From Planctomycetota bacterium (GTDB lineage: Bacteria > Planctomycetota > GCA-002687715 > CAIWVZ01): a stretch of DNA of 64,000 nucleotides. Each line of letters starts with the position of its first letter. Within the stretch, counting starts at the first letter, position 1. Position numbers and translations under genes: made by a program. The notes beneath the pieces were generated by a model. That model had not been told where the DNA came from. It saw only the letters and a program-made list of their open reading frames with translations, and ran no database searches. The DNA lies in NCBI GenBank assembly GCA_044222185.1, contig JBGANV010000001.1, positions 1,984,001-2,048,000 of the forward strand, read 5' to 3'. Shown here piece after piece: positions 27,528 to 54,454 of this stretch.

Positions 27528-27536
27528 GCGCAGAAG

Positions 27537-27562: not shown

Positions 27563-27585
27563 GCTCGATCGCGGCGGCGCAGGAC

Positions 27586-29610
27586 TCACACGAGCGCGTA
27601 GCCGGTCATGACCAGCAGCGCGAGCCCGAGGACGATCGTCGTGGCGCCGAAGATCCGCGCGGCGATCCGCACTCCACGCGACGGCGGCGGCGTCACCATC
27701 TCCGCGAGGCGTCCTTCCTTGACGAGGAGTTCGTACTCCTCCGGTCGCTCCTCCTTGAGCTCGCCTTCCGGCACGACGCCGGTGTAGAAGCCCACGTCGA
27801 GCGGGAACTTGTCCGGACGGAGATTCGTCTGGAATGCCTGCACGGCGAAGTGGAATGCGACCGCCAGAAGCGCCTCGAGTCCATGGATGACGCCCGCCGC
27901 GTTCAGGAGCCACGGAGGCATGGCGCGCGAGAACCACTCGGGGAACCAGAGCATGGCACCCGTGAGTCCCATGATTCCCATGCCCCAGAACACCGCCCAG
28001 AAGTCGAACTTCTCCCAGTAGATCCATCGCCCGAACTGGGGCTTCGGACCGCGACCCAGGAACCAGCGGAAGTTCCCTGCGAGGTCCTGGAAGTCCTTCA
28101 GGCGCGGAACCATGGACCACGGCCCGCGGAACAGGCCACGTTCACGCTTGACGATGAACCGCCAGAGGACGTGCAGTACGAAGAAGGCGAACGTCAGGAG
28201 AAGCAGGACTGCGGCGAACCGATGCAACAGGGCGGCCGTCGTCGTCCCGCCGAACACCTTCATGACGGTGCGAGCCCATCGCTCCTGGCTGAAGTAGAGG
28301 GGCAGACCGGTGCCGGCGAGCATGAGGATCGCCGTCGTCGCGACGACGTTCACTCCGATGTGGACCTTCTTCATCCGCCGGATCCAGCGGACGTGCTCGC
28401 CGTGGCCCTCGTGGTTCAGCCGCCACTCCCGCGCGAGCAGGGAGCGTGCGAGCCACAGGAACACGTGGAGCCCTCCGAACGTCATCACCGTCAGGATGAG
28501 GCCCATCATCACGAGCCAGACCGCATTCAGGCCTGGGTACTCGCTGGATTTCTTCGGATCCGCGTGAACGAGATAGCCGGCGAAAGACGGGTTGGAGTTC
28601 TCGTGGCACTGGCCGCACGTGGCGACGCGCCGTGCCGGGTTGATGGACGAGGTCGGCTGGGATTCGGGAAGGATCTCGTGGTTTTCGTGGCACGTGTTGC
28701 ACGTCGCGACGCGGCCGTCGTATCCGAGCGAAGTGACCTTGCCGTGGTAGGTGAGGCGGAACGACACGCCGCGCTCGTCGTGGCATCGCGAGCACGACGC
28801 GACCGAGTCGGAGATGAACTGGGGTTCCGCGGTCTTGATGCCGTGCGGCTGATGGCAGTCCGTGCAGGTCGCGCCCTTGTGCTCGGCCCCGTTCGACTTC
28901 AGGTGATGGACGCTGCGCCGGTACTCCTCGAAGGGCGTCACGTGGCACTTCCCGCACTTCTGATCTACGCGCTCCCTGGCCAACGGCGAGTCGGGGTCCT
29001 TCTTGGCGTGGATGTCGTGGCCGCCGTGGCACGCGACACAGGTGGCGGACACCGTCAGCCCCGCCACGATGATTCCGTGGGCGTGCACGTCGCTCGCGTA
29101 CCTCTCGAACCGGAGAGGGCTGCCGATCGGTGCATCCGTGGCTCCGTTGGCATGGCACTTCGTGCACGTCACGTGAACGTTCAGCGGATACAGCGTCGAC
29201 TCGCGGTCGGACGGCTTGAAGATGTCGTGCACGCCGTGGCACGACTGACAGGTCACGGAGACGGCGGGGCGGCTCTCCGGGGCGCTCGATGCGGCGCGTC
29301 CGTGAACGCTCTTCGCGAAGACCTTGGCGGCCTCGTCGTGGCAGTCGGCGCAACCCGCAGTCGTCCGCCCTTTCTCGTGCGGGTACGGGCCGAAATCCAT
29401 GTGGCACTCGTCGCAGGATTTCGACTTGTGCACGGAGCGATCAAAACGGGTCTTGTCGACGAGAAGCCGCTCCACCGGCCTCGTCGGATCACCCAGGGCC
29501 TTCGCCAGCGCGTCCTTCGACGCGTGGCATTCGACGCACGATGGCTGTTGAGCCATTGCCGCGTCGACTGCAAGGAGAACGACGACGACCGCAAAGACTC
29601 GCGGACACAT
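27586..29610 (-). CDS. CbcL-like fusion: 11-heme periplasmic cytochrome c plus C-terminal membrane cytochrome b (FdnI/HydC-like), putative quinol oxidoreductase
   Basis: Signal peptide; 11 CxxCH (CVECH to CGQCH); membrane domain with LLHRFAA, FGRWIYWEKFDFWAVFWG, IHGLEALLA. Confidence 0.85.
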   Translation of the reverse strand: MCPRVFAVVVVLLAVDAAMAQQPSCVECHASKDALAKALGDPTRPVERLLVDKTRFDRSVHKSKSCDECHMDFGPYPHEKGRTTAGCADCHDEAAKVFAKSVHGRAASSAPESRPAVSVTCQSCHGVHDIFKPSDRESTLYPLNVHVTCTKCHANGATDAPIGSPLRFERYASDVHAHGIIVAGLTVSATCVACHGGHDIHAKKDPDSPLARERVDQKCGKCHVTPFEEYRRSVHHLKSNGAEHKGATCTDCHQPHGIKTAEPQFISDSVASCSRCHDERGVSFRLTYHGKVTSLGYDGRVATCNTCHENHEILPESQPTSSINPARRVATCGQCHENSNPSFAGYLVHADPKKSSEYPGLNAVWLVMMGLILTVMTFGGLHVFLWLARSLLAREWRLNHEGHGEHVRWIRRMKKVHIGVNVVATTAILMLAGTGLPLYFSQERWARTVMKVFGGTTTAALLHRFAAVLLLLTFAFFVLHVLWRFIVKRERGLFRGPWSMVPRLKDFQDLAGNFRWFLGRGPKPQFGRWIYWEKFDFWAVFWGMGIMGLTGAMLWFPEWFSRAMPPWLLNAAGVIHGLEALLAVAFHFAVQAFQTNLRPDKFPLDVGFYTGVVPEGELKEERPEEYELLVKEGRLAEMVTPPPSRGVRIAARIFGATTIVLGLALLVMTGYALV

Positions 29611-29638
29611 GTTCGTGTTCCTCAGCGCATCCCTGCCG

Positions 29639-31693
29639 TCACTTTCCGAGCTTCTTGTCGCATTCGTCGAGGAAGGAGCTCGCGGCTGTGAACAGCGAGG
29701 ATGCTCCGTTCGTGTTGTGAGAGGGTCCTGCCAGCGCACCCGCCTCGAAACAGGCTTTCGCCTTCGCGAAAAGTGCGCGTGCTTCCGTGGTGGCGGCTCC
29801 TGGAGCCGCCGCGGAGATCTTGAGTTCCGTGGCCTTCAGTCGGTCCGACAGGGTCTTCGACTCATCGGCCATGGCTTCACGCCATTGATCCAGCATGGAC
29901 CCGTAGCTCTCCTGCTTCTTGTGGCAGGCGATGCACTCTGCGCGGACCTCGGCGACGAGGTCCTTCGGGTCCTGGCGCTTGTGGCACTCCGTGCACGCCA
30001 CCTTCGCCATGTCGTTCTTGAGATCCAGCGTCGCGCCCTCGATGCGGATGTTCCCCGTGAGGAGCGCCGCCTCCCGATCGTGGCACGTGGCGCAGTCGGG
30101 CTTCTTGTCGTTGCCGTGGTGGCAATCAGTGCAGTCCTTCGGCTTGAACGTCGTCACGCCGTGCTTGTCTTCGTCGTGACACGCGTTGCAGTCGAGGTCC
30201 GTCTTCGCCAGGTGGGCGCGGTGACGGAACTGGACTCCGCCGAACCGGACGTTGATTCGCGCCGCATCGACGTGGCACGTATCGGCGCAGTGCGTGTCGA
30301 GCTTCCGCGGAACGCCGATGTCGATGTCCAGGGGCTTGAACGCCGGATCGAGCCCTGGGCCGGCCTCGTTGATCGCGTCCTTCGTCTTGCGGAGCAATGC
30401 CAGCGTGTACGTGATGTTGTGGGCGCCGTTCGAGCCGTCGGAGTGCACCAGGTCCAGGTTCTTGCGCGCGATCTCGAGCGACTGCGACGACCTGGCCGCC
30501 GCCCCCGCCTTCTCCAGCCCGGCAACCGCCCCATCCAGGCTCGTGAGGGCGCCAGTCACTTCCGTCCGCCAGCCCGTGAGCATGTTCCCGAACGTAGGGC
30601 CGTGGCAGTGCATGCACGACGTGTCGCCGGCCACGGGCATCCCCCCGTTGCGCGTCTTGCGGCTCTCGGCGCCCGGCCAGCCACGATGACAACCTGCACA
30701 ATCGACGCGCGTCTCGAACATCCGGTCCGGCCGGCCCTCGACGCCAGCGCCTCCCGTTCCCGAACGCATCAGGTGTTGCGTGTCGTGCAGTGCCGTGTGG
30801 CATTGCCCACAGTCCCCCGCCGTCGTCACGTGATCCCGCTCGGGAAGCTTGTGCTCCACTTCCTCGTGGCACTGATCGCATTCGATCTTGTGCTTCGTGA
30901 TGTGGTTCTCGTGGATGAACGCCACGTCGTTGAATCGGTTCAGGTGCTCGGGGGCACCGTGGCAAGTCGTGCACCGGGACTTCTTCGCGAGTCCGCTCCC
31001 GCGCGTGACGTTCCGATGACACAGGACGCACTCCGCCCCGCGGCCCACCCATTCGGAGTGACGGAACGGACGCCCGGAGACGTTCAGGTCCTCGGCGGGC
31101 GGTCCGTGGCACGTGTTGCAGTCGGCGTGCGCCTCGCTCTGCTCCGACGGACGCAGGTGGCACAGGAAGCAGCTGGAGCCGGTCACGGACATGTGCTCGC
31201 CCTGAACGATCTGCGAGTGGCAGCTCGTGCATCGAAGCTGGCGGCCGCGGCGCGTCTCGAGCAGGTGGCGGCGATGGTCGAACTTCACTCGGCCGAACGC
31301 GATGGGTCCGGACAGGAGCCGCTCGCTGTGGCAGCCCGACCGCATGCAGCTCTGGTCGCTGACCTCGGCCCAGGGCTTCGTCCCCTCCGTGTTGGTCACG
31401 TACTTCGTGAGCTGGTTGATCGCCTTGAACTTCCCGTCGACGGTCTCGAGGAGCCCAGGTTCGAAGTGGCAATCCACGCACTCGACCTTGCTGTGCGCCG
31501 AGTGCTTCCACGATTCGAAGTAGGGCTCCATGATGTGACACGACTTGCAGAAATCGGAGCGCGAGGTGTAGGCGACCATGCCGGTCGTCCCCACGGCACC
31601 GACGCCGAAGAGGATCGTCATCACGATCAACGCCGTCACCGCGAGCGCACGCGCGCGGGTCCAGATTCGCTTGATCCTCTGCAGGATGCTCAC
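29639..31693 (-). CDS. NapC/NirT-type membrane-anchored multiheme cytochrome c (16 CxxCH plus CX4CH and CX3CH)
   Basis: N-terminal TM then YTSRSDFCKSCHIMEPYFESWKHSAH..VECVDCH (NapC/NirT pattern); atypical CMRSGCH and CADTCH; GTGA overlap with the upstream gene. Confidence 0.85.
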   Translation of the reverse strand: MSILQRIKRIWTRARALAVTALIVMTILFGVGAVGTTGMVAYTSRSDFCKSCHIMEPYFESWKHSAHSKVECVDCHFEPGLLETVDGKFKAINQLTKYVTNTEGTKPWAEVSDQSCMRSGCHSERLLSGPIAFGRVKFDHRRHLLETRRGRQLRCTSCHSQIVQGEHMSVTGSSCFLCHLRPSEQSEAHADCNTCHGPPAEDLNVSGRPFRHSEWVGRGAECVLCHRNVTRGSGLAKKSRCTTCHGAPEHLNRFNDVAFIHENHITKHKIECDQCHEEVEHKLPERDHVTTAGDCGQCHTALHDTQHLMRSGTGGAGVEGRPDRMFETRVDCAGCHRGWPGAESRKTRNGGMPVAGDTSCMHCHGPTFGNMLTGWRTEVTGALTSLDGAVAGLEKAGAAARSSQSLEIARKNLDLVHSDGSNGAHNITYTLALLRKTKDAINEAGPGLDPAFKPLDIDIGVPRKLDTHCADTCHVDAARINVRFGGVQFRHRAHLAKTDLDCNACHDEDKHGVTTFKPKDCTDCHHGNDKKPDCATCHDREAALLTGNIRIEGATLDLKNDMAKVACTECHKRQDPKDLVAEVRAECIACHKKQESYGSMLDQWREAMADESKTLSDRLKATELKISAAAPGAATTEARALFAKAKACFEAGALAGPSHNTNGASSLFTAASSFLDECDKKLGK

Positions 31694-32976
31694 GGCCGGC
31701 CCTCCGCCGGAGTGTCCGCCGCGACTCGCAGCCGGCTCAGCCGTCGCACGTGCACGTACAACGCGGCGACGAGGATGCCGATCGCGCTGAAGACGATCGC
31801 AGCGAGGATGCGGCGGTCGCGGATGTTCCGGAGCTTCACCGACAGGGATTCATCCACCTTCGTCACGACGCCGTCCGCCTTCGCGACGAGCGCCTTGAAC
31901 TCATCGACGGACGCCGCGTGTCCCACGGGACCTGCCATCACGAGCGAGTGACGCGCATCGTTGATGTAGGTCTCTTCCGCGCGCACCACGATGCCCTTGC
32001 TGCGAGCGTCGGTGATGCGGTCCGTCGTCTCGGAGACGCGGTTGCGAAGCCCGGACATGAGATCGGCCATCGCGTGCGCGGCCATGGCTCCCTTGTCACT
32101 CTTGCCGTTGACTTCGTGGCACTGCGCGCAGGCCAGCGGCTTCCAGCCTTCCGTGACCACGTCCGACGTCTCCTCGATGTCGTGGTATCGATGGCAGCTG
32201 GTGCATTCCTGCATCTTCCCGGCGGTCGCGGCGGCAAAGTGCGGGGAACGCCTGAAGTAGTCCCGCGCGGCGACGTGGCATTGCCCGCAAACGTCCGCGA
32301 CTTCCGTGACGCCTGCGGGCCGCGCCCCGTGCGCCGAGTGGCAGTCACTGCAGTTCGGAAGTCGCAGCTGCTTCCCGCTGAGCAGCCCCTTGCCGTGAAC
32401 GCTCTTCGAGTACTTCTCGAAGACGTCGGCCGTGAGCTTGTACGGCTTCATCCGCTCGACGTCTGCATGGCAGCGCGAGCAGGTCACGGGCACCCGCGCC
32501 CGATACGTCGGCGACTCGGGATCAGTCTTGCTGCGGACGTCGTGGGCCCGGTGGCAGTCGATGCAGGTCGGGACGTTCTTGTCGCCCTTCTCCATCAGCG
32601 CCTTGCCGTGCGGGCTACGCTGGTAGTACGCCAGCTGTCCTGTCGGCAGTCCGTAGCGGAACATGGCATCGGGGTCGCTGTGGCAATTCCCGCACAGCTC
32701 CACGACGGCCTTGCCGCGCGGCACGCCCTTGAATGCGGGGTTGTCGATGCACGCGGCGCGCGTCCCGATCGAGGGATCGCCGCCATGGCAGGTGACGCAA
32801 CCGACACCGGCGTCCGCGTGGACGCCCGTGACGTGCAGCGCCGCTTCCTTGCCGTGACACACGGCGCACGCCTTGTCCCCCGTGGGGCGGGTCGTCGTCT
32901 GTCCGGGGGCGAGGGCCGCTCCCCAGACGAGGGCGATCGACAGGGCGACGACCGAGCTGACCAGCGTGGTCCTCAT
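31690..32976 (-). CDS. Nonaheme cytochrome c with a C-terminal membrane anchor (bc module 2)
   Basis: Signal peptide, 9 CxxCH, helical stalk and C-terminal TM; paralog of 35200-36558. Confidence 0.88.
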   Translation of the reverse strand: MRTTLVSSVVALSIALVWGAALAPGQTTTRPTGDKACAVCHGKEAALHVTGVHADAGVGCVTCHGGDPSIGTRAACIDNPAFKGVPRGKAVVELCGNCHSDPDAMFRYGLPTGQLAYYQRSPHGKALMEKGDKNVPTCIDCHRAHDVRSKTDPESPTYRARVPVTCSRCHADVERMKPYKLTADVFEKYSKSVHGKGLLSGKQLRLPNCSDCHSAHGARPAGVTEVADVCGQCHVAARDYFRRSPHFAAATAGKMQECTSCHRYHDIEETSDVVTEGWKPLACAQCHEVNGKSDKGAMAAHAMADLMSGLRNRVSETTDRITDARSKGIVVRAEETYINDARHSLVMAGPVGHAASVDEFKALVAKADGVVTKVDESLSVKLRNIRDRRILAAIVFSAIGILVAALYVHVRRLSRLRVAADTPAEGRP

Positions 32977-34307
32977 GACAATCCCGCTCCGTGGATGGAC
33001 AACGCCACCAACCCGAATAGGAGGGCGATCCCGATTGCCGGGGTCAGGTAGGGACGCTTGGGCCTGCCGTCGAAGTGCGTATCGAGCATCGGCCAGATCA
33101 AGGCGACGATCACGACGAGCCACAGGCCTGCCGTGACCAGGACCGACAGCGTCGGCGGCACCAGGTCCTCCAGTCCGTGGAACCACAGGACGTACCACGG
33201 GCGGGTGGTGGAGGCGATTCGGTGGAACTGGTCCGGTGCTCCATTGATCGGTGGCGGAAGCCACGCTGACAGGAGCACCAAGGCGCCAGCCATGACGAGG
33301 TTCGTGCCCAAGATCCTCAGGAAGTGATTGGGGAAGAACGTCCTTCCCGCAGGTCCCGGCGAGATGGCGACCACTTCCTTGACGCGTGGGTCACGGCTCA
33401 GTGTCGCGGCAAGCTCGGAACGGCAGCCCTCGATGTGGAACACGGCACGTCCCTCCAGCGCTTCCTGGCGGAGCTGGACGTTCTCGGCTTCGATCTGTGC
33501 GCGGAGCACGGCGACTTCCGCCTGCGTGGCGTCGACCCGGAGTACCGCGAGCATGGATTCGTTGGGCGGTTCGCCGCCTCGCGGCGGAACCGGTGGCGTC
33601 AAACCGTGGCGCCACACGAGTCGCAAGTGCGTCGAGAGGAGGAAGAACAGGGTCCACGGCAGGAGGATCACGTGAAGCGCGAACGCGCGCCCCAGCGCCG
33701 CGTTCGAGAGATCGGTCCCGTCGGCGAAACGTCCGAGGAACGCTCCGATGATCCCGATCCCGGTCCCCGGGCGGAGGGCGCGGGCACCGTTCCAGTAGGC
33801 GGCCTGATCCCACGGCAGGAGCGTGCCCGTGAAATGAAGGCTGAGGACCACCGGGAGAACCAGGAGGCCGACGACCCAGTTGGCCTGCCGCGGCGCTCGG
33901 AACGCCCGGCTGAAGAAGGCGCGCAGGACATGCACGGCGACGAGGACCACGAGCAGTTCGGCGGCCCAATGATGGGTACCCCGGACGAGCCAGCCGGCGG
34001 GTAGCTCGGCCGTGATCTCCAGCACGCTCGTGTGCGCCGTCTCCGGATGGGCCTCGTAATGGAAACTGAGGAGGATTCCGGTACCGGCGAGAACGAACAC
34101 GAGGAACAGGGCCGCAGGTCCGAAGACGTGCATCCAGCCGACGCCTCGGTAGATGGGCCGACGCCACGCACGCGCGATGGCTTCACCGGGCCGAAGCCTG
34201 TCGTCCAGCGGGTGATACAGGAACCCGACCCACCGCAACAGCGCACCGACGGTGCGGCTGTCGACACTGGACCCGAGCCAAGCCCGCAAGCCTTTGAAGA
34301 ATGCCAT
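32973..34307 (-). CDS. Cytochrome b of a Rieske/cytochrome b complex (module 2) with an inserted ferredoxin-like domain
   Basis: GWLVRGTHHWAA...VHVLR and FALHVILLP...STHLRLV supply 4 heme His; GTLLPWDQAAYW; RPWY where PEWY is expected; about 65-aa insert at 33355-33554. Confidence 0.88.
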   Translation of the reverse strand: MAFFKGLRAWLGSSVDSRTVGALLRWVGFLYHPLDDRLRPGEAIARAWRRPIYRGVGWMHVFGPAALFLVFVLAGTGILLSFHYEAHPETAHTSVLEITAELPAGWLVRGTHHWAAELLVVLVAVHVLRAFFSRAFRAPRQANWVVGLLVLPVVLSLHFTGTLLPWDQAAYWNGARALRPGTGIGIIGAFLGRFADGTDLSNAALGRAFALHVILLPWTLFFLLSTHLRLVWRHGLTPPVPPRGGEPPNESMLAVLRVDATQAEVAVLRAQIEAENVQLRQEALEGRAVFHIEGCRSELAATLSRDPRVKEVVAISPGPAGRTFFPNHFLRILGTNLVMAGALVLLSAWLPPPINGAPDQFHRIASTTRPWYVLWFHGLEDLVPPTLSVLVTAGLWLVVIVALIWPMLDTHFDGRPKRPYLTPAIGIALLFGLVALSIHGAGLS

Positions 34308-34474
34308 CGCGCTACTCCGTCGTCGTCAGGGCGGCGAACGATCCCGCACACCGATTCCGCTCCCCATGCGCACAAAGCCGCGGAGGCATCACCGCACTCC
34401 GCCACCCCGCGGCCGGCGCGGGACTCGATCGTGGTTCGATTCCATCCCTGCCAGCCTGGCGCCTCGAAAAACGA

Positions 34475-35128
34475 TCACGCGTGCGTCTTCACGTACACGC
34501 GGCCATCGATCACGGCGACGGGGAACGTCCTCAGCGGCCTCGGCGGCGGACCATGGAGGACGTTCCCGAACACGTCGTAGGCCGCGCGATGACAGGGGCA
34601 CACGACCTGGTCGCGCCGGGCGTCCCACTCGACCTGGCACACCTCGGAGTGAGTGCAGATGCTCGCGAGCGCACGATAGTCCTTGGCAGCCGTGCGGACG
34701 ACGAGAACCGGAGTGCCCTCCGCTTCGACCGTCCGCCATGGACGCTTGTCGAAGTCGTCGACCGTGCCGGCCGGGATGACGTCGCGGCGCGCCCGTCGAG
34801 CGCCCTTACCGAGGAAGAACCCCCCGGCAATCGCGGCGGCAGCGGCGGCGAGCACCGTCGTCAGGACGCCGATCACGACGCCGAGGAAGCTCCGTCTCGC
34901 TGAGAGCTGCCTCGAAGTCCCAGGCGCCGGCATGGAGACGAATCGCTCGACCGCTGGGTGATCCGCGAGCGCGGCCTCGACGGCGCCCTCGTCACGGCCG
35001 GCAGCCACGAGGAGCAGCGCGTTCGAGTTGCCGGTCACGAGTTGCGCGGTGCAACCGAGCCCGGCGATCCGTTCTTCGAGGTCGCGCCGCGCGTCCACCG
35101 CGATGCCGGGTCGAATGATGATGATCAT
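34475..35128 (-). CDS. Rieske 2Fe-2S protein (module 2) with an N-terminal ferredoxin-like domain before the Tat anchor
   Basis: SARRSFLG Tat motif plus TM; CTHSEVC and CPCH ligand boxes; GPPPRPL. Confidence 0.88.
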   Translation of the reverse strand: MIIIIRPGIAVDARRDLEERIAGLGCTAQLVTGNSNALLLVAAGRDEGAVEAALADHPAVERFVSMPAPGTSRQLSARRSFLGVVIGVLTTVLAAAAAAIAGGFFLGKGARRARRDVIPAGTVDDFDKRPWRTVEAEGTPVLVVRTAAKDYRALASICTHSEVCQVEWDARRDQVVCPCHRAAYDVFGNVLHGPPPRPLRTFPVAVIDGRVYVKTHA

Positions 35129-35199
35129 GTCCAGTCTCTTCGTTTTCAGATCCGCGCCAGGGGCGCCGCGGGCGGCGCTGGCGCCGCCACCGGTCCGGT

Positions 35200-36558
35200 C
35201 TACCCGGCCTTCGCCGCCGATGCCTCGACCGGCAGCGGCATGCGACGAATGACGACGACCAGCACTCCGATCACGACCAGGATCAGCGCGAGCGACCAGA
35301 CGAGCCACACGCGCCGCGCCGTGTACTCGTCCATGGCGGCGTTCGCCTGGAGCTTCACCTTGTCGGTCACGGCACGACCGACGGCGACGGCCTCGTCGAC
35401 CGGCTTCGCGGAGAACGTATGCACCAGCGAACGTGCATTGGTCAGGGCTCCCCGGGCCTTCACGAGTTCGAACCTGGAGGTCCGAACTTCCATTCCACGG
35501 CGCTCGGCGTCCGCGATCATTCCCTCGGCCACGGCGATCTCGGACTTCAGACCTTCGATCTTCCCGCGGATTCCCTCGGCAACCTTCGCCCCCGACGCGG
35601 GAGCGCCGAATCGGCTGTCGTTGTGACACTTGGCACAAACGGCAGCCGAATCCGTACCGATCATCTCGTCGGACGGCTTGTGGATGTCGTGGTAACCGTG
35701 GCACGTGGCGCACCCGGGGAGCTTGACCTCCTCGAACTGGTGCTTCATGCGCGTGCCGGAAAACAGCTCGGCGATCTTGCCGTGGCAGGTGCCGCAAGCG
35801 TTGGCGACCGATCCGACTTCAGGCGGAACGGCGCCGTGGTTGCCGTGGCAGTCGTTGCACGTCGGCGCGCTCACGTCGCCTTTCTTCAACATCGCGACGC
35901 CATGCACGCTCTTCTGCCAGAGATCCAGCTGATTCGTCGGCAGCGGTGCGTCGTGGTGCTTCACGCCCGCCATGCGCTGCGTATCGGCGTGACACTTCCC
36001 GCAGGTCGTCGCCACGTTCGTCGCGTACACGGGCGACGCGAGGTCCTCGACTGCCTTGATCCCGTGGCTGCCGTGGCAGGACACGCACGTCGCGACCTTC
36101 TTGTCGGCGGACTCCTTCAGGCGCTTCCCGTGGCCGCTCGTCCAGTACTCGGCGACCTGATCCGTGCGCGGCGACGGCTTGTACTTGCGCATGAACTCGA
36201 TGTCGGAGTGGCATCGGCCGCAGAAGCCGGGCACGTCCGCCGGCGACTTGATCGCGCGGAAGCCATCTTTCTGGCTGTGCGCGTCGGCGTACTCCTCGCC
36301 TTTGGGATTGCCACCGTGGCAGTCCTCGCAGCGAAGGCCGCGCTGCCAGTGATAGTCGGCGGCGAAGTCCTTCTCCGAGACCATGAAGTGGCGGTCCTTC
36401 TCCTCGAACCGCTCGGGATCCGCATGGCACGAAAGACATCCGGACGTGGCCGGCTTGCTCTCGGCCGCTGCAGGCTTGTCCTGGGCCACGAGCATGACGC
36501 CGCAAACCGCGATGCACGCGAGGAGCCATGGGACGCGGATTCGTGTTGGTGTGCTCAT
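35200..36558 (-). CDS. Nonaheme cytochrome c with a C-terminal membrane anchor (bc module 1)
   Basis: Signal peptide, 9 CxxCH (CLSCH to CAKCH), C-terminal TM; ATGA overlap with cytochrome b. Confidence 0.88.
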   Translation of the reverse strand: MSTPTRIRVPWLLACIAVCGVMLVAQDKPAAAESKPATSGCLSCHADPERFEEKDRHFMVSEKDFAADYHWQRGLRCEDCHGGNPKGEEYADAHSQKDGFRAIKSPADVPGFCGRCHSDIEFMRKYKPSPRTDQVAEYWTSGHGKRLKESADKKVATCVSCHGSHGIKAVEDLASPVYATNVATTCGKCHADTQRMAGVKHHDAPLPTNQLDLWQKSVHGVAMLKKGDVSAPTCNDCHGNHGAVPPEVGSVANACGTCHGKIAELFSGTRMKHQFEEVKLPGCATCHGYHDIHKPSDEMIGTDSAAVCAKCHNDSRFGAPASGAKVAEGIRGKIEGLKSEIAVAEGMIADAERRGMEVRTSRFELVKARGALTNARSLVHTFSAKPVDEAVAVGRAVTDKVKLQANAAMDEYTARRVWLVWSLALILVVIGVLVVVIRRMPLPVEASAAKAG

Positions 36559-37673
36559 TCCATCAGCCCCCACACGGTCATGCCGCAGAAGAACAGCGCG
36601 GAAATCCAGGCGAGCGCCACGAGGATGCGACGTCCGAGCCCGGGTCTCTCACTGCGGTCGATGAACGGCACCAACAGCAGCGCCAGTCCGCACAGCCCGA
36701 AGAAGAGGATCCCGAGCACCTCACCCTCCATGCCGAGGATGTGTGCCGGCAGCTTCTTCAGCGCCTGGAACATGAAGAGGAAGTACCACTCGGGGCGGAT
36801 GCCCTCGGGCGCGCTTCCGAACGGGTCGGCCTTCTCCCCGAGCTCCCAGGGAAACAGTGCGGCGAAGGCTGCAAGCACCGCGAGGGCGATGTACCAGCCG
36901 ATCATGTCGCGCAGGAGGAAATGGGGGATGAACCCCATCGACGGGACCTTCGCTTCGCCGCCGTGCTTCTTTGCGACGTGCTCGGGCACGCTCATCCCGT
37001 GTTTCTGCACGAGGTAGAGGTGGAATCCGAGCAGCGCGAGCGTCGTCAGCGGGAGGATTGCGATGTGCAGTGCGTGGAATCGGGCGAGCGTGTCGCCCGT
37101 CACGTTGTCCCCCGCACGCGTGAAGACGAGCAGATCGTGGCCGATGATCGGCACCACGCCGACGATCGCCGTGCCGACGCGCGTCGCGAAGAACGCCAAC
37201 TGGTTCCACGGCAGCAGGTATCCGCTGAACCCGAAGGCGAGGAAGATCATGAGCAGCAGGAAGCCGGTCACCCACGTGATCTCACGGGGACGCCGGTACG
37301 CCCGCATGATGAACGCCGTCAGCATGTGGATGAACAGCACGCCGATCAGCAGGTTGGCCGCCCAGGAGTGGATCGAGCGGATGAGCCACCCGAAATCCAC
37401 CTCCGTCATGATGCGCTGAACGCTCTCGAACGCGCCGTCAGGAGTCGGCTTGTAGAAGAGGCTCAGGAGAATTCCCGTGATGAACTGGATCGCCACGAGG
37501 AACAGCGCCATTCCACCGAGGAAGTAGAAGGCGGACGTCTTGTGGATCGGGACGCGCTTGTGCGCCGCGAGCTCGCGCGCAGCGTCCAGCCCCAGTCGTT
37601 CATCGAGGAAGGCCGACAGCTTGCCCTGCGGAGCCGGCGCGGCCTTCGCGTCCTCAACTCTTGCGGGAGACAA
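36555..37673 (-). CDS. Cytochrome b (b6 + subunit IV fused) of a Rieske/cytochrome b complex (module 1)
   Basis: GWLIRSIHSWAA...FIHM and RFHALH...GFHL supply 4 His; GYLLPWNQ; intact PEWY; no heme-ci Cys (FYFLGG). Confidence 0.93.
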   Translation of the reverse strand: MSPARVEDAKAAPAPQGKLSAFLDERLGLDAARELAAHKRVPIHKTSAFYFLGGMALFLVAIQFITGILLSLFYKPTPDGAFESVQRIMTEVDFGWLIRSIHSWAANLLIGVLFIHMLTAFIMRAYRRPREITWVTGFLLLMIFLAFGFSGYLLPWNQLAFFATRVGTAIVGVVPIIGHDLLVFTRAGDNVTGDTLARFHALHIAILPLTTLALLGFHLYLVQKHGMSVPEHVAKKHGGEAKVPSMGFIPHFLLRDMIGWYIALAVLAAFAALFPWELGEKADPFGSAPEGIRPEWYFLFMFQALKKLPAHILGMEGEVLGILFFGLCGLALLLVPFIDRSERPGLGRRILVALAWISALFFCGMTVWGLME

Positions 37674-38130
37674 GGATCTCCTCCTGTCCGGGCTTCCCCC
37701 GCAACGTGACCTTGTACATCTCCAGCGGCCGCGGCGGCGGCCCGGACACGTTCCGTCCCATGAGGTCGTACACCCCGTTGTGGCAGTTGCAGAAGATGTC
37801 GCCGCGATCCTGCCGGTGTTGCACCGTGCAATCGACGTGCGAGCAGACGGCGTTCAGCGCACGGACCTCGCCATCCTTCGTCTTGATGACGAGGCACGGC
37901 TTGCCACCGAAGTTGAACGGCGCGGGCCAGTGGCCGTCGGCGTCCGGCTTGAGTTCGTTGACCTTGTAGGGCGCGACGGCTTCGAGGTTGCCACCGCTGA
38001 TCTCGCTGGACTTGGGCCGCAGGAACCGCGCAACCGGATAGAAGAGCATGCCAACGGTGGCGACGACCCCGGACCCGAGCATCCGGAGCAGGCCGCGACG
38101 TGGGATCGGAATCTGTTCGGGCTGGCTCAT
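37654..38130 (-). CDS. Rieske 2Fe-2S protein (module 1)
   Basis: PRRGLL Tat motif plus TM, CSHVDC and CNCH boxes, GPPPRPL. Confidence 0.92.
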   Translation of the reverse strand: MSQPEQIPIPRRGLLRMLGSGVVATVGMLFYPVARFLRPKSSEISGGNLEAVAPYKVNELKPDADGHWPAPFNFGGKPCLVIKTKDGEVRALNAVCSHVDCTVQHRQDRGDIFCNCHNGVYDLMGRNVSGPPPRPLEMYKVTLRGKPGQEEILVSRKS

Positions 38131-40326: not shown

Positions 40327-40335
40327 GCGAGTTCC

Positions 40336-41841: not shown

Positions 41842-42127
41842 GCTCTCGCTCCCGGGATTCCACGCGGGCGGACGCACACCGGCGACTTCGAGACGGATCG
41901 ACCGCCGGGACGCACACTGAGATGCGCGCTGATTATGGGGACCAATTGCGGCAGGCGAATACGACGCACCACGCAAGGGGATCATACGCTCCTGTCCGTA
42001 GCGCGCAGTTCGTATGCGGAGCGGGAATCAGACCCACTGCAAGTCGTACTCGGACCCGCGTACATTCGGCCCGCTCGCAGATTTTGTCGATCACCGACTC
42101 GGAACGCAGTCTCCGGAGGATGGGATC

Positions 42128-45031: not shown

Positions 45032-45071
45032 GCGCCGACGCTCCGACTGACGAACCGCTTCTGAGTGCGCC

Positions 45072-45110
45072 GCCCGGGCCCGGTCCTCACGGATCGGGCC
45101 CGGGTCTTTT
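45072..45110 (+). terminator. Rho-independent terminator after the decaheme gene
   Basis: GCCCGGGCCCGGTCC-tcac-GGATCGGGCCCGGGT stem followed by CTTTT. Confidence 0.8.
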
Positions 45111-46975: not shown

Positions 46976-46987
46976 GGCTCGCAACCC

Positions 46988-50138: not shown

Positions 50139-52655
50139 ATGACTCCCTGCTTCGGCCTGCTCACGTTCTTCCTCATGGTCGACGTCGCGTGCCTCGTCGT
50201 CCCCTTCTACTCCGCGCGCTTCTCCGACAGCCCGTGGGGCTCGGCTGAACGGATGGCCTTCCTCGCGCGGGCGATGGCCGCGAGCCTCGCTTTCGGGCTC
50301 GTGACGGCGATCGCCGCAGAGCGCCGCAATCATTCGACGTGGCACTTCCTCCTCGGGCACCTCGGCTTCCCCGTCGCCCTCGTTCTCGCCACCTTGGGGT
50401 TCGACCAGGCCAAGGCCGGAGTGACGCTGCCGATCTGGAATCCCACCGGTCCTGCGGGCGCCAACCTCCTCGTCGTGATCTCGGCGTTCGCTGGCGCCCT
50501 CGTCAGCCTCGGGCTCACGCGCTTCGCACGCTCCGAAATGCCGCCCATGGGACGGGGGCTGAAGGCCGTTTGCCGACTCATGTTCCAGATCGGCAACCTG
50601 TGGTTCGGCATCGCGCTGATGCTCGTGATCGGGTCGACCGTCGCAGCCGGCACCTTCGTCGAGAACAGCTACGGAACGAAGGCGGCGCAGTACCTGATCT
50701 ACCGCTCGCCCTGGTTCGGAGCGGTGTTCTTCACCGGTGGAATGTCGATGCTCTGCGCCACGTTCCGCAAGTACCCGTTCCGCCTCGAGCAGGCGGGATG
50801 GCTCACGGTCCATTCCGGCCTCGCCATGACCGTCATCGGCGCGATGATGTCGTTCCTCTCCAGCGTCGAGGGCGACGTTTCGATCCGCGAAGGAGAGACC
50901 GCGGCCACGTTCCAGCTCTCCACGCAGACGCGAATCGCCGTCGACGAAGTGATGAAGGACGCAAGCGGTCGCCGCGCGACGCGCCCCGTGCTGCGCGAGA
51001 TCGCGGACTTCGACGTGAATCCGACGAACATGGAACCGAACCGGGCGTTTTCCGCTCCGTCCGGGGAGGACGGAGTCGGGCTCCAACTCGTCGTCGATCG
51101 CTATTACGGCATCGGCGAACCATCGTCCGAATGGACCGACGATGCCGACCACGAGCATCTCGGCGTGGAAATCGAGATGACGATGGCGAAGGCGAAGCGA
51201 TCGGAAACGCTTCGACTCGAGGAAGAACGGGATAGCGAGGCACGTCTCCCCTTCGGAGACGGCGGTTTCACCGTTTCGCTCTTCAGGGCCCCGGCTCGGC
51301 AGCTGCAGGCGTTCGTCCGAAAGGACCAGCCCGCGGGTCACGGCCACGCAATCGTTCGCAACGCGGCGGGCGACGTCGTGGCGGACATCCCCGTCGAGCC
51401 GACGACGGCACCCCGCACGGATGGACAGGCTGCGCCGCTCACCTCGGTGACACGGATCCCGGGAACGGAAGTCGACGTCCGACTCCTGGGATACTTCGAC
51501 GACATGCGGGTGACGCAATCGAACTCCGTCACCGACTCGGCGCCCGGGAACCCGATCAATCCCGCGATCAAGCTCGAGATCACCGGGCCCGTGGGACTCG
51601 ACACCCACCACGTCATGGCATATCTGCCTGGAAAGCACCCGACGGAAGGCGGGCGCAGCGACGACCGAAAGAACCCTTACTGGGTCAACTTCGAGTACGC
51701 GCCGCGCATCGAACTGAACGGGCCTCAGCTGCTGCTGGTCGACGTCGACGGCGCGATGAGCTGGATCTACGTGTCGGCGAGCGGCGAGCGCTCGATGGGT
51801 CCGATCAAGGTGGGTGAGGACATCCCGCTTCCCATGCCGGCGTTCAAGCTGAGGCCAACGAAGCTCTACTCGAAGCTCCGCATCGACGACGGCTACGTGT
51901 TCAAGGGATACCGCGCCGACAACCAGGTGATCCGCGTGACTGCGCGAGCCACCGACGGAACGCCGCCCGCCTCGACGTGGGTCCCCCTCGGAACGCGGCG
52001 TCCGCTCGAGCTCGGGGATCGGATGTTCACCGTGTCGTGGACGCCATCGACGCGCCCTCTCGGGTTCGCACTCACGTTGAATGACTTCCACCGGGACTTC
52101 TATCCTGGCTCGGCCGAGGAGTCGTCGTTCGAGTCGTACTGCCTCATGCGACACCCGACGAAATTCCCCAACGGCGCGGACATCAAGATCGACATGAATC
52201 ACCCGCTTCGCATCGACGGCTGGCGTCTCTTCCAATCGCGTTTCGGCCGCGACGGGAAGACGACCACTCTGCAGGTGAACCGCGACCCCGGTCTCTCGAT
52301 CACCTACCCCGCGTGCGCGGTCGTCCTCCTCGGCATGATCGTCGTCTTCTTCATGAAGAAGACGCTCAAGCTGAAGCGCACCGACCTCGAGAAGAAGGGA
52401 GCGTCCGCCGCGAGCCACCTCGCGTGGGCCGTCGGATCCGTCCTCGCCGTAGGCGTGGGACCGCTCCTCTTCGGGCTCTACGCCGCGACGCACACGGCCC
52501 TCGGCCTCCCGCTTTCCGGCTGGCCATCCTTCGTGTTCGGTGTCAGTCTCCTGATCGTCTTCCCCATTCTCGTCGTCTGGTACTTCGTCCGCCCCATGCA
52601 GCGTCGCCTCGAGATGGCGGTCGCTCCTGCGGCACAGTCTGGAGCCTCGGCATGA
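50139..52655 (+). CDS. resB: Cytochrome c biogenesis System II protein, ResB/CcsB family
   Basis: AAGTFVENSYG...IYRSPWF, GWLTVHSG (TM His), large periplasmic loop, IDMNHPLRIDGWRLFQS, LQVNRDPG. Confidence 0.85.
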   Translation: MTPCFGLLTFFLMVDVACLVVPFYSARFSDSPWGSAERMAFLARAMAASLAFGLVTAIAAERRNHSTWHFLLGHLGFPVALVLATLGFDQAKAGVTLPIWNPTGPAGANLLVVISAFAGALVSLGLTRFARSEMPPMGRGLKAVCRLMFQIGNLWFGIALMLVIGSTVAAGTFVENSYGTKAAQYLIYRSPWFGAVFFTGGMSMLCATFRKYPFRLEQAGWLTVHSGLAMTVIGAMMSFLSSVEGDVSIREGETAATFQLSTQTRIAVDEVMKDASGRRATRPVLREIADFDVNPTNMEPNRAFSAPSGEDGVGLQLVVDRYYGIGEPSSEWTDDADHEHLGVEIEMTMAKAKRSETLRLEEERDSEARLPFGDGGFTVSLFRAPARQLQAFVRKDQPAGHGHAIVRNAAGDVVADIPVEPTTAPRTDGQAAPLTSVTRIPGTEVDVRLLGYFDDMRVTQSNSVTDSAPGNPINPAIKLEITGPVGLDTHHVMAYLPGKHPTEGGRSDDRKNPYWVNFEYAPRIELNGPQLLLVDVDGAMSWIYVSASGERSMGPIKVGEDIPLPMPAFKLRPTKLYSKLRIDDGYVFKGYRADNQVIRVTARATDGTPPASTWVPLGTRRPLELGDRMFTVSWTPSTRPLGFALTLNDFHRDFYPGSAEESSFESYCLMRHPTKFPNGADIKIDMNHPLRIDGWRLFQSRFGRDGKTTTLQVNRDPGLSITYPACAVVLLGMIVVFFMKKTLKLKRTDLEKKGASAASHLAWAVGSVLAVGVGPLLFGLYAATHTALGLPLSGWPSFVFGVSLLIVFPILVVWYFVRPMQRRLEMAVAPAAQSGASA

Positions 52656-54454
52656 TTTCGCGAACTCTCATCGTCGCGCTCGGCCTCGCAGCCGCCGTCT
52701 TCGCGCAAGATGTGCGGTCCGTCGATCGCTCGCAGCTCGATCTGTCGGAAATCCGCCGCCTTCCCGTGCTTGCCAGTGGACGCTTCAAGCCGTTCGACTC
52801 GTACGCGCGCGAAATCGTCACGGCCGTCACGGGAGCGGAGAAACCCAAGCGCGTGATGGACGGCGGCGCAGAGAAGCGCATGGACCCCGTGCTCGTCTAC
52901 CTCGAGTGGGTCTTCGATGCGGCGCGCGCGCGCGCGATTCCCCAGCTCGCCGCGCCGAACGCGGCGTCGCGCAAGCTCATTGCGGCCGCGCGCGGCGAGA
53001 AGGACACGAACTTCTCCTATGACGAGCTCATGAGCAACCCGGCGTTCGTCGAAGCCGTCAACGCGGCGCTCGCAAAAGACTCCGAGACCTGGGGCGAGGT
53101 CGAGCGCGAGATCATGGCGCTGCGTCATCGCTCGGACGAATTCGCCGACGCGGCGGGCCTGACGTCGGCGTGGTCGTCCTTCCCCGCCGAACTCCGCGGA
53201 GGCCCGCCCATGGTGCCGCCCAAGGAGGCCCGAGTCCCGGGCATCGAATACAAGTGGGGCTGGCTCCCGAGCCTGGCGACGTTCGGATACACGGACGTGC
53301 AGCGCTCGCCCGTCGTCGACGCGTGGACCAGACTTCGCTCCGCGTGGACCGCGTCGGATTCCAACGCCTTCCTCGAAGCGTCCAAGGCACTGCGGGCGGC
53401 GATCACGGCACTCGGTGCTCCCGAATTCCCGCCGCAGGCCAAGCTCGATCGCGAGGTCCGGTTCAACCTCGTGAACCCGTTCACGGTCGCTGCGTGGTTG
53501 TACTTCGCTACGTTCTGGCTCGCGGTCGTCTGGCTCGTCTGGTCGCGAAAGTGGTTCGGCTTCGTGGCAGCGGTGCCAGCGCTGATCGGGCTGGGTTACC
53601 ACGTGTGGGGTTCCATCGAGCGAACGGCGCTGTCCGAGCAGGCGCTCATCGGGAACCTCTACGAGTCGCTGCTCTTCGTCGCCGGCGTCGCCATGCTGGC
53701 CGGGTTGGCGTTCGAGGGGATCTTCCGCTCGCGATGGTGCCTGCTCGCGGGATCGCTGCTCGCCTGGGTTGCCACACTCGCGGCCCTCGACAATCCCCTG
53801 TTCATGCCGCCCTCGATCGCGCGGCTGAAGCCGGTCCTGATCAACAACTTCTGGATCCACATCCACGTTCCCACGATCATGGCGTCCTACGCCACGCTGG
53901 GGCTTGCGGCCGTGATGTCGCACGTGTGGCTGGTGCTCCGGCTGTTCCGGCCCGAGACGCATCCCGAGCTGAGGTCCATCTCGAAGTTCACTTACTGGAT
54001 CACGGCGCCGGGAGTCATCCTCCTCTTCGCCGGCATGATCCTCGGTGGCATCTGGGCCGATGCGTCGTGGGGACGGTTCTGGGGCTGGGATCCCAAGGAG
54101 ACGTGGGCATTCATCACGTGGCTCGTGTTCATCGTCGTGATCCATGGGCGATGGTCCGGATGGCTCCGCGACTTCGGAACGGCCATGGGCGGAGTGGTCG
54201 GAGGGCTCTCGCTGTTGTTCACCTACTACGGCGTGAACTTCTTCCTCTCGGGGCTGCACTCGTACGCGGGCGCAGGCAGCGGCGGAGTGACGTTCCCGGG
54301 CTGGCTCATCGCCTGGCTCACGTTCGAGGTCCTGCTCGTCGCGGCGTCGATTCTCAAGCATTCGGGGAGTCGGACCGTCGCGACGAAGGTCACCGACGCG
54401 GAGACGGGACCGACGGCGCATGGCGCGACGTCGAAGCCGGCACTGCGAGGGTAG
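52652..54454 (+). CDS. ccsA: Cytochrome c biogenesis System II heme synthase CcsA/ResC
   Basis: GRFKPFDSYAR, NLYES, WIHIHV, WWD domain GGIWADASWGRFWGWDPKETW, GVNFFLSGLHSYA; ATGA overlap with resB. Confidence 0.93.
   Translation: MISRTLIVALGLAAAVFAQDVRSVDRSQLDLSEIRRLPVLASGRFKPFDSYAREIVTAVTGAEKPKRVMDGGAEKRMDPVLVYLEWVFDAARARAIPQLAAPNAASRKLIAAARGEKDTNFSYDELMSNPAFVEAVNAALAKDSETWGEVEREIMALRHRSDEFADAAGLTSAWSSFPAELRGGPPMVPPKEARVPGIEYKWGWLPSLATFGYTDVQRSPVVDAWTRLRSAWTASDSNAFLEASKALRAAITALGAPEFPPQAKLDREVRFNLVNPFTVAAWLYFATFWLAVVWLVWSRKWFGFVAAVPALIGLGYHVWGSIERTALSEQALIGNLYESLLFVAGVAMLAGLAFEGIFRSRWCLLAGSLLAWVATLAALDNPLFMPPSIARLKPVLINNFWIHIHVPTIMASYATLGLAAVMSHVWLVLRLFRPETHPELRSISKFTYWITAPGVILLFAGMILGGIWADASWGRFWGWDPKETWAFITWLVFIVVIHGRWSGWLRDFGTAMGGVVGGLSLLFTYYGVNFFLSGLHSYAGAGSGGVTFPGWLIAWLTFEVLLVAASILKHSGSRTVATKVTDAETGPTAHGATSKPALRG

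Follow-up and report, generated by a model that had tools for sequence, protein, structure and literature searches.

A multiheme cytochrome cluster in a planctomycete genome as a candidate electron conduit between the quinone pool and the cell surface

Introduction

To our knowledge, mechanistic understanding of extracellular electron transfer (EET) is limited to Shewanella and Geobacter, and we know of no Q-cycle-dependent EET route that has been shown in model organisms. The present work concerns a 64,000-nucleotide stretch of a Planctomycetota genome (the window; GenBank assembly GCA_044222185.1, contig JBGANV010000001.1, here C1, positions 1,984,001 to 2,048,000), in which genes for an outer-membrane β-barrel, multiheme c-type cytochromes and Rieske/cytochrome b (Rieske/b) modules lie side by side at 27586-45031, all features being given as positions within the window.

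The nearest descriptions of the outer-membrane part concern porin-cytochrome (Pcc) clusters. According to the passages of Shi et al. (2014; PMC4245776) on this group, Pcc porins are predicted at 18–22 strands, and a two-gene cluster of Candidatus Kuenenia stuttgartiensis, retrieved with Geobacter templates and called "distantly related" to the Geobacter clusters, was filed as Pcc; its two products are a porin-like protein and a cytochrome of 338–344 aa with 12–14 heme motifs. Passages elsewhere report a porin-cytochrome cluster in anammox bacteria (PMC7188810), the inclusion of Planctomycetes in PCC4 subgroup II (PMC5566968), FeGenie-type PCC calls in Planctomycetota metagenome-assembled genomes (MAGs; PMC10732223), and the syntenic porin-multiheme clusters EET1–4, with MtrC-like and MtrA-like models, in uncultured lineages of Acidobacteriota and Verrucomicrobiota, among them a sister phylum (bioRxiv 10.64898/2026.05.27.727921). 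A porin-like barrel and multiheme cytochromes are joined to a Rieske protein (ExtO) and a cytochrome b (ExtP) in the extHIJKLMNOPQS cluster of Geobacter sulfurreducens, as set out in the relevant part of PMC5877670; the same cluster is also described in PMC6148476. For quinol oxidation, passages on the CbcL/MtoC/MtrH family place it in 15 phyla, with 3–23 heme motifs and two homologues in Planctomycetes, and those on the CbcL system relate the use of several quinol oxidases by a single organism to differences in acceptor potential.

Here we describe the gene content, predicted folds, family memberships and conserved synteny of the planctomycete cluster, together with its presence in RNA libraries. 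We read the cluster as a trans-envelope conduit that would connect the (mena)quinone pool with the cell surface and could run in either direction, and assign this reading a probability of roughly 0.6. The linkage between its inner-membrane genes and the barrel pair is conserved, given that a block of these genes adjoins the pair in four other genomes, which represent three named families, and recurs in a fifth genome in altered form.

Results

Gene content and heme count of the cluster

Seven stop-to-stop open reading frames (ORFs) at 27586-45031 carry 11, 16, 9, 9, 4, 13 and 10 CxxCH motifs, 72 in sum, and two atypical sites, one CX4CH and one CX3CH, are both located in the NapC-type protein. 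Judging from residue frequencies, 72 CxxCH motifs within ~4,200 residues would be far beyond chance. The initial annotation, made from the sequence alone, had put the cluster at about 74 hemes (72 CxxCH plus two atypical sites); our motif count agrees, and the figure is a fair one because the two atypical sites are conserved in orthologues. All genes listed in that annotation were found at the positions given there, and every component family that it named is present in the Pfam and NCBIfam scans. Genome-wide, 23 ORFs with at least three CxxCH contain 183 motifs in total, the cluster accounting for seven of these ORFs and 72 of the motifs. Several 4-nt gene overlaps had also been noted and were recovered, three of them among the inner-membrane genes (NapC-type gene/nonaheme b-copy, nonaheme b-copy/cytochrome b2 and nonaheme a-copy/cytochrome b1) and a further one between ResB and CcsA, and cytochrome b1 and Rieske1 overlap by 20 nt. 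We take the 4-nt overlaps as translational coupling, in support of a common conduit.

The genome amounts to 7.08 Mb in 16 contigs, with an estimated completeness of 93.8%. Its assignment as a probable planctomycete stood, as a PSD/PSCyt 'planctomycete cytochrome' protein at 56846-59191 (Pfam/NCBIfam) and the record titles of the nearest relatives both point to Planctomycetota. The GC content across the window ranges from 0.62 to 0.69 and shows no step at the cluster. A foreign origin of the cluster was considered and rejected, its GC content (0.645–0.678) being like that of the flanks.

The outer-membrane barrel and its tridecaheme partner

The gene at 40336..41841 (minus strand) encodes an outer-membrane β-barrel of 501 aa, for which an AlphaFold2 (AF2) model built with 55 homologues (pLDDT 82.5, pTM 0.76) predicts a signal peptide, a disordered N-terminal stretch (residues 24-81) and then 22 strands without a plug. 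No Pfam family was matched at E ≤ 0.01 and no NCBIfam family at E ≤ 0.001, and the nearest solved folds are TonB-receptor barrels (Cir, Z 18.4) and ushers (Z 17.8). Despite the proximity of these 22-strand receptor folds, identity as a TonB-dependent receptor was rejected, given the plug-less barrel, the lack of any Plug or TonB family match and the disorder of the first ~80 residues. A plugged TonB receptor, which the initial annotation had named as an outcome that would overturn its proposal, is thus not what the model predicts.

Sequence searches retrieved 68 matches to the barrel in 90% clusters and, among 1.84 billion proteins, 1178 representative clusters at E ≤ 1e-3, of which 612 at E ≤ 1e-30. 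In the ESM Atlas, the nearest clusters (score 0.98) are 'hypothetical protein' sets from Acidobacteriota, Nitrospirota and Planctomycetota, and no Pfam-bearing cluster scored above 0.92. Judged by these homologues, the barrel represents a real and unnamed protein family. Its members occur in at least 85 of 401 sampled Planctomycetota genomes, a count that is a floor owing to the strict first search pass, and homologous barrels are also found in MAGs of Nitrospirota, Acidiferrobacterales and Betaproteobacteria.

Next downstream of the barrel, at 39295..40326 (minus strand), lies the gene of its cytochrome partner, a putative lipoprotein of 343 aa with 13 CxxCH motifs, or ~26 residues per heme. 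In the family alignment, the consensus shows a Gly-Cys that ends the signal peptide, which we read as a lipobox. Profile matches of this tridecaheme protein comprise c7-type arrays, ActA of alternative complex III and a GSU1996-type chain, with MtrA (6r2q_A) appearing only at E 2.9e-6. A heme-dense cytochrome gene, homologous to the tridecaheme gene, follows the barrel gene directly in all 20 phylum loci and in 54/54 loci of the species-genome set, anammox MAGs included; the two sets share three genomes, and the barrel end of one locus (L105) is visible in only one of the two analyses behind the latter count. The loci with the pair derive from Planctomycetota, Nitrospirota, Desulfobacterota-type, SAR324 and proteobacterial MAGs. 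The number of heme motifs in the partner is mostly 13 in Planctomycetota, with a few stop-to-stop frames of 14, 15 or 17, rises to 19 in two Anammoxibacter-titled MAGs (L059 and L063), is 11–12 in SAR324/delta-type MAGs and mostly 7 in Nitrospirota-type/Thermodesulfovibrionales MAGs (L072, L081, L090 and similar).

Complex prediction for the barrel with the tridecaheme protein gave a median ipSAE of 0.44 (runs of 0.39, 0.44 and 0.47) against 0.00 for the best of three controls, with a partner pLDDT of at least 63 and a run-to-run contact agreement of at least 27%. The mark used for such predictions is reached by 116 of 157 solved complexes and by 2 of 215 mismatched pairs, and scores of 0.60 or below include only 18 of the 157 solved complexes, plus both of the passing mismatches. 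The prediction lends weak support to a barrel–tridecaheme complex.

A decaheme lipoprotein of the OmcA/MtrC family

On the opposite strand, separated from the barrel gene by a divergent intergenic region of 301 bp (41842..42142), lies the gene of a decaheme lipoprotein of 962 aa (42143..45031, plus strand). The initial annotation had called it a divergent OmcA/MtrC decaheme lipoprotein, in which family models, profile searches and fold matches concur: the protein scores 263.3 bits with TIGR03507 (cut-off 209.3), matches PF22113 (domains II/IV) in two stretches with E 2.5e-42, and as a profile retrieves MtrF (4e-28), OmcA (1e-12) and UndA (5e-10) from PDB. In Foldseek, the top 16 matches are all OmcA, UndA, MtrC or MtrF (E 9e-18 to 3e-6) and the next match follows at 5e-4, the query being a moderate model (pLDDT 69.7) computed without hemes. 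The heme motifs form two groups of five, at residues 226-423 and 782-943, and the model is of the same four-domain fold (β, pentaheme, β, pentaheme) as the solved members, with an enlarged middle β region. A lipobox, LASC, is followed by a long Gly/Pro linker, and the lipobox is present in most homologues. Within this linker, at 42205-42264, ~17 consecutive glycine codons occur, a segment that the read mapping skipped as a repeat.

A decaheme homologue was found beside the barrel pair in 11/20 phylum loci and in 15 of the 28 Planctomycetota-titled loci, and in none of the 26 loci from other phyla. The genome holds a paralogue elsewhere that is 58% identical. Two decaheme copies per barrel pair, in tandem or flanking it, were seen in L037/L067, L038, L068 and L069.

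Four putative quinone-interacting modules in the inner membrane

Up to four quinone interfaces had been proposed for this locus, and by domain content four quinone-interacting modules are indeed present: two Rieske/b complexes, a NapC/NirT-type cytochrome and a CbcL-like protein. The first Rieske/b module comprises Rieske1 (37654..38130; PF00355 E 5.3e-13; an RRGLL Tat-type motif), cytochrome b1, a b6 part fused to subunit IV (36555..37673; PF00033 E 1.4e-48 and PF00032 E 9e-10), and the nonaheme a-copy with nine CxxCH and a C-terminal transmembrane (TM) anchor (35200..36558), all on the minus strand. The second, likewise on the minus strand, comprises Rieske2 (34475..35128), cytochrome b2 (32973..34307; PF00033 E 6.1e-29), which consists of a b6-like four-helix part, an insertion of ~90 residues and a subunit-IV-like part, and the nonaheme b-copy (31690..32976), which combines a signal peptide, nine CxxCH and a C-terminal TM anchor and overlaps its neighbour by 4 nt on each side. 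Its nine motifs are kept in the window protein and in 4/4 orthologues.

Both cytochromes b carry the four histidines for two b hemes, at 102/116 (HX13H) and 203/218 (HX14H) in b1 and at 112/126 (HX13H) and 212/227 (HX14H) in b2, which we take to be assigned to helices as in b6-type complexes. In NCBIfam, cytochrome b1 matched the cytochrome b6 model best (211 bits), followed by the ExtP model (203 bits), both below cut-off, and cytochrome b2 matched ExtP (NF040969) best, with 154 bits. The cluster-binding boxes are CSHVDC/CNCH in Rieske1 and CTHSEVC/CPCH in Rieske2. No gene of a monoheme cytochrome c1 or f was detected at the locus with Pfam; an anchored nonaheme cytochrome follows each cytochrome b in the c1/f position.

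Rieske2 has an N-terminal ferredoxin-like domain (PF18152 E 2.5e-4, below cut-off) ahead of an RRSFL Tat-type motif with a TM helix and the Rieske 2Fe-2S domain (PF00355 E 1.3e-13). The architecture PF18152+PF00355 is precomputed in nine database homologues, and the N-terminal domain aligns in all four orthologues. By the usual topology, this domain and the insertion of cytochrome b2 would face the cytoplasm; BLASTP between the two gave no alignment at E ≤ 100, and kinship is not claimed. Fusion of a Rieske protein with a ferredoxin-like domain was met in only ~10 database clusters.

The NapC/NirT-type protein (29639..31693, minus strand), here termed NapC16, has a single N-terminal TM helix (residues 13-41) and 18 heme sites, of which 16 are CxxCH. 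It matches PF03264 over residues 17-108 with 40.3 bits (cut-off 24.1) and NrfH with E 9.3e-14, the NrfH, TorC and NapC equivalog models all remaining below cut-off. The atypical sites, CMRSGCH (CX4CH, residue 116) and CADTCH (CX3CH, residue 469), are kept in the window protein and in 3/3 aligned orthologues, with CxxCH in place of the second in one orthologue. Downstream, the CbcL-like c+b fusion (27586..29610, minus strand) has 11 CxxCH within the N-terminal half, plus a putative multi-helix b-type membrane domain in its C-terminal half, where hydropathy indicates 5-6 segments (residues 358-674) and TIGR01583, the FdnI-type formate dehydrogenase gamma subunit, gives E 1.2e-6, below cut-off. 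Several phylum loci have a homologue of this protein close to the barrel. At the other end of the run, a c554-like tetraheme protein with a signal peptide (38238..38879, minus strand; PF13435 E 1.3e-20; NF043010 E 3.2e-24, below cut-off) is probably a periplasmic carrier, and the same position is occupied by a c554-like gene in locus L035.

Conserved linkage of the inner-membrane block to the barrel pair

The order Rieske2–cytochrome b–nonaheme–NapC16 is found beside the barrel pair in four other genomes, namely G240 (family f8), L060, G113 (f57) and G138 (f76), the L060 stretch ending within NapC16, and in altered form in G331 (f84). In G240 all genes point the same way in a single array, in which a c554-like gene and the decaheme gene stand in between. 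The CbcL-like gene comes after NapC16 in G240 and G138 and before Rieske2 in G113. Synteny of the cluster genes in relatives, which the initial annotation had put forward as a check, was therefore borne out. A NapC16 match at E ≤ 1e-20 was obtained in 45/401 phylum genomes, and in eight of these 45 the NapC16-like gene and the barrel gene share a contig at a distance of ~2-13 kb; many of the others are too fragmented for linkage to be judged, and in G256 the two lie on separate contigs. Peculiar to the window are the second module (c554, Rieske1, cytochrome b1 and nonaheme a-copy) between the barrel pair and the conserved block, and the flipped decaheme gene.

Transcription signals and RNA libraries

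A gap of 415 bp separates the barrel/tridecaheme pair from the run of genes that extends from c554 to the CbcL-like gene. Scanning for the sigma-70 consensus gave no site, against 1.1 expected from shuffles, and none in the 301-bp divergent region. Eight terminator candidates were found against 9.6 in shuffles, and since this total shows no excess, only one long hairpin past the decaheme gene is noteworthy (45072..45105, plus strand; 15 pairs, 12 of them G-C). An Rfam scan of the window detected no family.

The stretch was present, with shares of 0.33-1.0, in metagenome runs from bioreactors and activated sludge that belong to three DNA studies (one of them possibly the source of the DNA), and with shares of 0.43 and 0.35 in two metatranscriptome runs of a fourth study; the habitat was deduced from these runs, leaving aside the small-share runs X10-X20, of which X19 alone was mapped to the stretch. 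In two runs of one study, RNA-library contigs with at least 99% likeness extend over parts of NapC16, cytochrome b2, nonaheme a-copy, cytochrome b1, Rieske1, c554, the barrel and the decaheme gene, and a run of a second study adds shorter pieces. These contigs are a sign of cluster expression and no proof of it. Bins without cover in RNA runs X5 and X8 (27000-28991, 40944-42271 and 45592-46900) are no evidence of silence. The contigs over 44481-45050 from two runs of one study both stop at 45050, where a DNA run continues; this position falls 19 nt beyond the stop codon of the decaheme gene and leaves 22 nt to the terminator-like hairpin, a weak hint at a transcript end.

Heme maturation genes and genome context

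Five kilobases past the decaheme gene, as a separate unit behind the terminator-like hairpin and three opposite-strand genes, follow genes for a ResB-like System II cytochrome c biogenesis protein (50139..52655, plus strand, with an inferred start; PF05140 E 4e-18) and a CcsA/CcsB-type heme handling protein (52652..54454, plus strand; PF01578 E 1.6e-34; TIGR03144 134.6 bits, below the cut-off of 187.6), which overlap by 4 nt (ATGA). Adjacent ResB and CcsA domains mark the pair as System II. The initial annotation had described these as the cluster's own heme maturation genes. The existence of a paralogous second copy and the arrangement in L053, a relative with the same gene order in which ResB-CcsA lies directly upstream of the barrel, speak for this description; otherwise the tie is one of proximity, and dedication of this copy to the cluster is plausible. 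The second pair (C1:1501578-1505812 and C1:1498685-1499869) is 50% and 46% identical and lies just downstream of a weak COX1-like match.

The three intervening genes (45263-49324, minus strand) encode an FG-GAP repeat protein, a 344-aa protein without assignment and a 430-aa protein that bears a weak metalloprotease motif of the reprolysin/myxosortase type, and no link between them and the cytochromes was found. On the other side of the cluster, at a distance of 480 bp downstream from the CbcL-like gene, a 487-aa ORF without family adjoins the gene of a B12-binding radical SAM protein of 844 aa (23106-27104, minus strand), a pair that is not kept beside the cluster in the relatives examined. 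Further off, at 7028-16937, an Rrf2-type regulator gene stands beside genes for a 1532-aa astacin/FG-GAP/lamin-tail protein, a lamin-tail protein and a Ser/Thr kinase-FGE-sulfatase fusion, a content typical of planctomycete secreted and signalling genes.

Elsewhere in the genome, two more Rieske/cytochrome b loci were found (C1:2127218-2130502 and C14:485579-495565), each followed by a cytochrome with eight CxxCH, and the C14 locus adjoins a strong match to heme-copper oxidase subunit I. Four COX1 matches and no match to cytochrome bd oxidase were obtained in this 93.8% complete genome. From gene content, the organism probably respires oxygen, and a Rieske/b complex with a multiheme partner is probably the normal form of complex III in this genome.

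Discussion

Electron route and observations against it

Under the conduit reading, the 22-strand plug-less barrel would sheathe the tridecaheme lipoprotein and let electrons cross the outer membrane, and the decaheme protein would be exposed at the surface as the terminal that touches minerals, humics or electrodes. At the inner membrane, the two Rieske/b complexes, the 18-site NapC/NirT-type protein and the 11-heme CbcL-like protein would exchange electrons with quinol/quinone, the Rieske/b complexes acting as energy-conserving Q-cycle modules in which a nonaheme protein replaces cytochrome c1. The periplasm may be bridged by the c554-like tetraheme protein together with the long heme chains of the anchored cytochromes, which would complete a physical chain. 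Its purpose could be to let a heterotroph that otherwise respires oxygen use extracellular acceptors in anaerobic respiration, and the several quinol oxidases might serve acceptors of differing redox potential, as ImcH and CbcL do in Geobacter. In our view, outward flow is the most likely direction.

Several observations weigh against this reading. The solved folds closest to the barrel are generic large barrels, MtrB occurring only at rank 29 (Z 14.3, r.m.s.d. 6.8, 322 aligned residues), and the barrel profile found no real match among PDB sequences, the four rows returned being at chance level (E 0.9-2). The tridecaheme protein gave no match to TIGR03508 (MtrA/DmsE) in NCBIfam, its matches there being QrcA and c7, and in the strict first-pass search the barrel family was found in none of the four genomes sampled from the family to which the window belongs. 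At least three transcription units must be assumed, owing to the 415-bp gap and to the decaheme gene as a separate divergent unit. A Rieske/b module is no sign of EET by itself, since the genome has two further Rieske/b-multiheme loci. Rieske/b complexes also need fairly high-potential acceptors, which is a poor fit to Fe(III) oxide reduction. Lastly, RNA libraries may contain DNA, and their contigs give neither transcript levels nor ends.

Alternative explanations

Electrons might instead flow inward, with extracellular Fe(II), reduced minerals, humics or a cathode as donor, through the decaheme protein and the barrel pair to the c554-like carrier, and from there downhill to oxidases or N-oxide reductases and also into the quinone pool via the NapC-type protein, the CbcL-like protein or a reversed Rieske/b complex. 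Precedents exist, as Nitrosomonas passes electrons from c554 through a NapC-family cytochrome to quinone and Acidithiobacillus ferrooxidans uses a reversed bc1 complex; the heme-copper oxidases of this genome could accept the electrons, the two Rieske/b modules could run in opposite directions, and the barrel homologues in Nitrospirota, Acidiferrobacterales and Betaproteobacteria MAGs are in keeping with such a role. Rieske/b complexes are also suited to higher-potential chains or to reverse operation. This last point, and the ability of CbcL/MtoC- and NapC-type proteins to work both ways, as indicated by passages of PMC6295460 that place CbcL/MtoC/MtrH and CymA homologues in both Fe(III) reducers and Fe(II) oxidisers, keep inward flow a serious rival. 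We nevertheless regard it as rather unlikely, because OmcA/MtrC-type decahemes are typical of reducers and the characterised oxidiser conduits MtoAB and PioAB, in the account given in the corresponding part of PMC5566968, lack an extracellular cytochrome.

Two further explanations appear improbable. In one of them, EET would play no part and the cluster would be a periplasmic respiratory network for a soluble substrate, such as selenite/tellurite-type oxyanions or N- and S-compounds, and the barrel would serve as an entry pore. This is how ExtI is interpreted, as an uptake porin, in passages of PMC5877670, whose ext cluster also has a Rieske protein and a cytochrome b, and the model of ExtP from this selenite/tellurite operon scores 203 and 154 bits on the two cytochromes b, below its cut-off of 290. 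On the other hand, a heme-dense lipoprotein cytochrome accompanies the barrel in every locus examined, an OmcA/MtrC-family cytochrome is present, and Pfam and NCBIfam scans of 27586-45031 detected no catalytic subunit (molybdopterin, HAO/NrfA-type or rhodanese), no reductase search beyond Pfam having been made. A chance neighbourhood, in which an outer-membrane pair, ordinary Rieske/b complexes and separate quinol dehydrogenases adjoin with no common pathway, we consider very improbable. It would accommodate the three or more transcription units, the Rieske/b-multiheme loci elsewhere in the genome and the separate contigs of G256; it is opposed by the block beside the barrel pair in four genomes and its altered form in a fifth, by the co-directional array of G240 and by the eight of 45 NapC16 genomes with a NapC16-like gene ~2-13 kb from the barrel.

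Implications

A more far-reaching proposal, which we hold to be tentative and rather doubtful, is that Planctomycetota possess a conserved, undescribed respiratory supermodule that couples EET to a Q-cycle. It would consist of a Rieske/b complex with cytoplasmic ferredoxin-like (ACT-type) domains on both the Rieske protein and cytochrome b and a nonaheme protein in place of c1, an 18-heme NapC-type wire spanning the wide planctomycete periplasm, and a CbcL-like protein, all permanently connected to a Pcc-type pair of barrel and tridecaheme protein and to an MtrC terminal of the Shewanella type. Such a cell could then switch quinol oxidation between an energy-conserving and a non-conserving path, depending on the potential of the external acceptor or donor. 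More generally, a distant and environmentally common phylum may build EET from mixed parts, namely a Geobacter/anammox-type pair, a Shewanella-type surface cytochrome and Rieske/b modules. If the conduit is indeed fed by the Rieske/b modules, the export or import of electrons would be tied to a Q-cycle that builds proton-motive force, and estimates of the energy yield of metal and humic respiration would change. Enrichment-based tests are realistic, since the organism recurs in bioreactor and activated-sludge metagenomes and the cluster occurs in RNA libraries.

Comparison with known systems

The initial annotation had not recognised the architecture as a characterised system. Each part comes from a known family, porin-cytochrome clusters were already known, and the ext cluster is a partial precedent for joining Rieske/b to a porin, and what may be new is the arrangement itself: in the main texts of open-access papers and bioRxiv, no account was found of the conserved block in Planctomycetota, or of such a block joined to a Pcc-type pair and an MtrC-type terminal. 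The main texts on EET1–4 and in PMC10732223 do not contain the word 'Rieske', and their passages on porin pairs join to these no Rieske/b module, 18-site NapC-type protein or CbcL-like protein.

Like the ext cluster, the window combines a porin, multiheme cytochromes, a Rieske protein and cytochrome b in one cluster. Its cytochromes b fall short of ExtP membership, scoring below the NF040969 cut-off as given above, and in contrast to the ext cluster it has no rhodanese lipoprotein or selenocysteine cytochrome but two Rieske/b modules, a NapC-type protein, a CbcL-like protein and an MtrC-type surface cytochrome. The CbcL-like protein appears to resemble CbcL in domain layout, with an N-terminal multiheme c domain and a probable C-terminal multi-helix b-type domain, and has 11 motifs compared with nine in CbcL; an ImcH-type protein was not identified in the cluster.

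The barrel pair corresponds by description to the Kuenenia pair, in that the barrel gene adjoins the gene of a heme-dense cytochrome, here of 343 aa with 13 motifs, and both the adjacency and a plug-less barrel of 22 strands agree with the Pcc features given in the passages cited above. Anammox-titled MAGs carry homologues of both proteins, the barrel homologues being ~27% identical (E 4e-47 and 2e-45) and those of the cytochrome 34%, and for this reason the pair is read as of the Pcc kind and not as MtrAB. Homology to the Geobacter Pcc proteins OmbB and OmaB would come through the BLAST link in PMC4245776, where it is called distant. Unlike OmaB, which is described as periplasmic, the barrel partner in the window has a lipobox, and the extracellular partner is an OmcA/MtrC-family decaheme, whereas Geobacter OmbB-OmaB-OmcB has the OmcB-type 12-heme protein.

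The decaheme protein belongs by cut-off, profile and fold to the same family as the surface cytochromes of Shewanella MtrCAB/OmcA (6R2Q; OmcA 4LMH; MtrF 3PMQ), and is ~300 residues longer, with an enlarged middle β region. MtrB itself is a barrel of 26 strands; the window barrel has 22, has no MtrB/PioB family match, and its profile matches in PDB include no MtrB at E ≤ 10. Identity of the pair as MtrAB was rejected on the lack of MtrB/PioB and MtrA family matches and on a 13-heme cytochrome of c7/ActA type as opposed to MtrA/DmsE. The suggestion that the locus combines Shewanella and Geobacter parts accordingly stood for the component families and the MtrC-type decaheme, and not for an MtrAB-type pair. 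What the window shares with Shewanella is the three-part logic of a barrel, a cytochrome that would be inserted in it and a surface lipoprotein cytochrome, with a NapC/NirT-type quinol dehydrogenase in the place of CymA that has 18 heme sites where the Shewanella protein has four.

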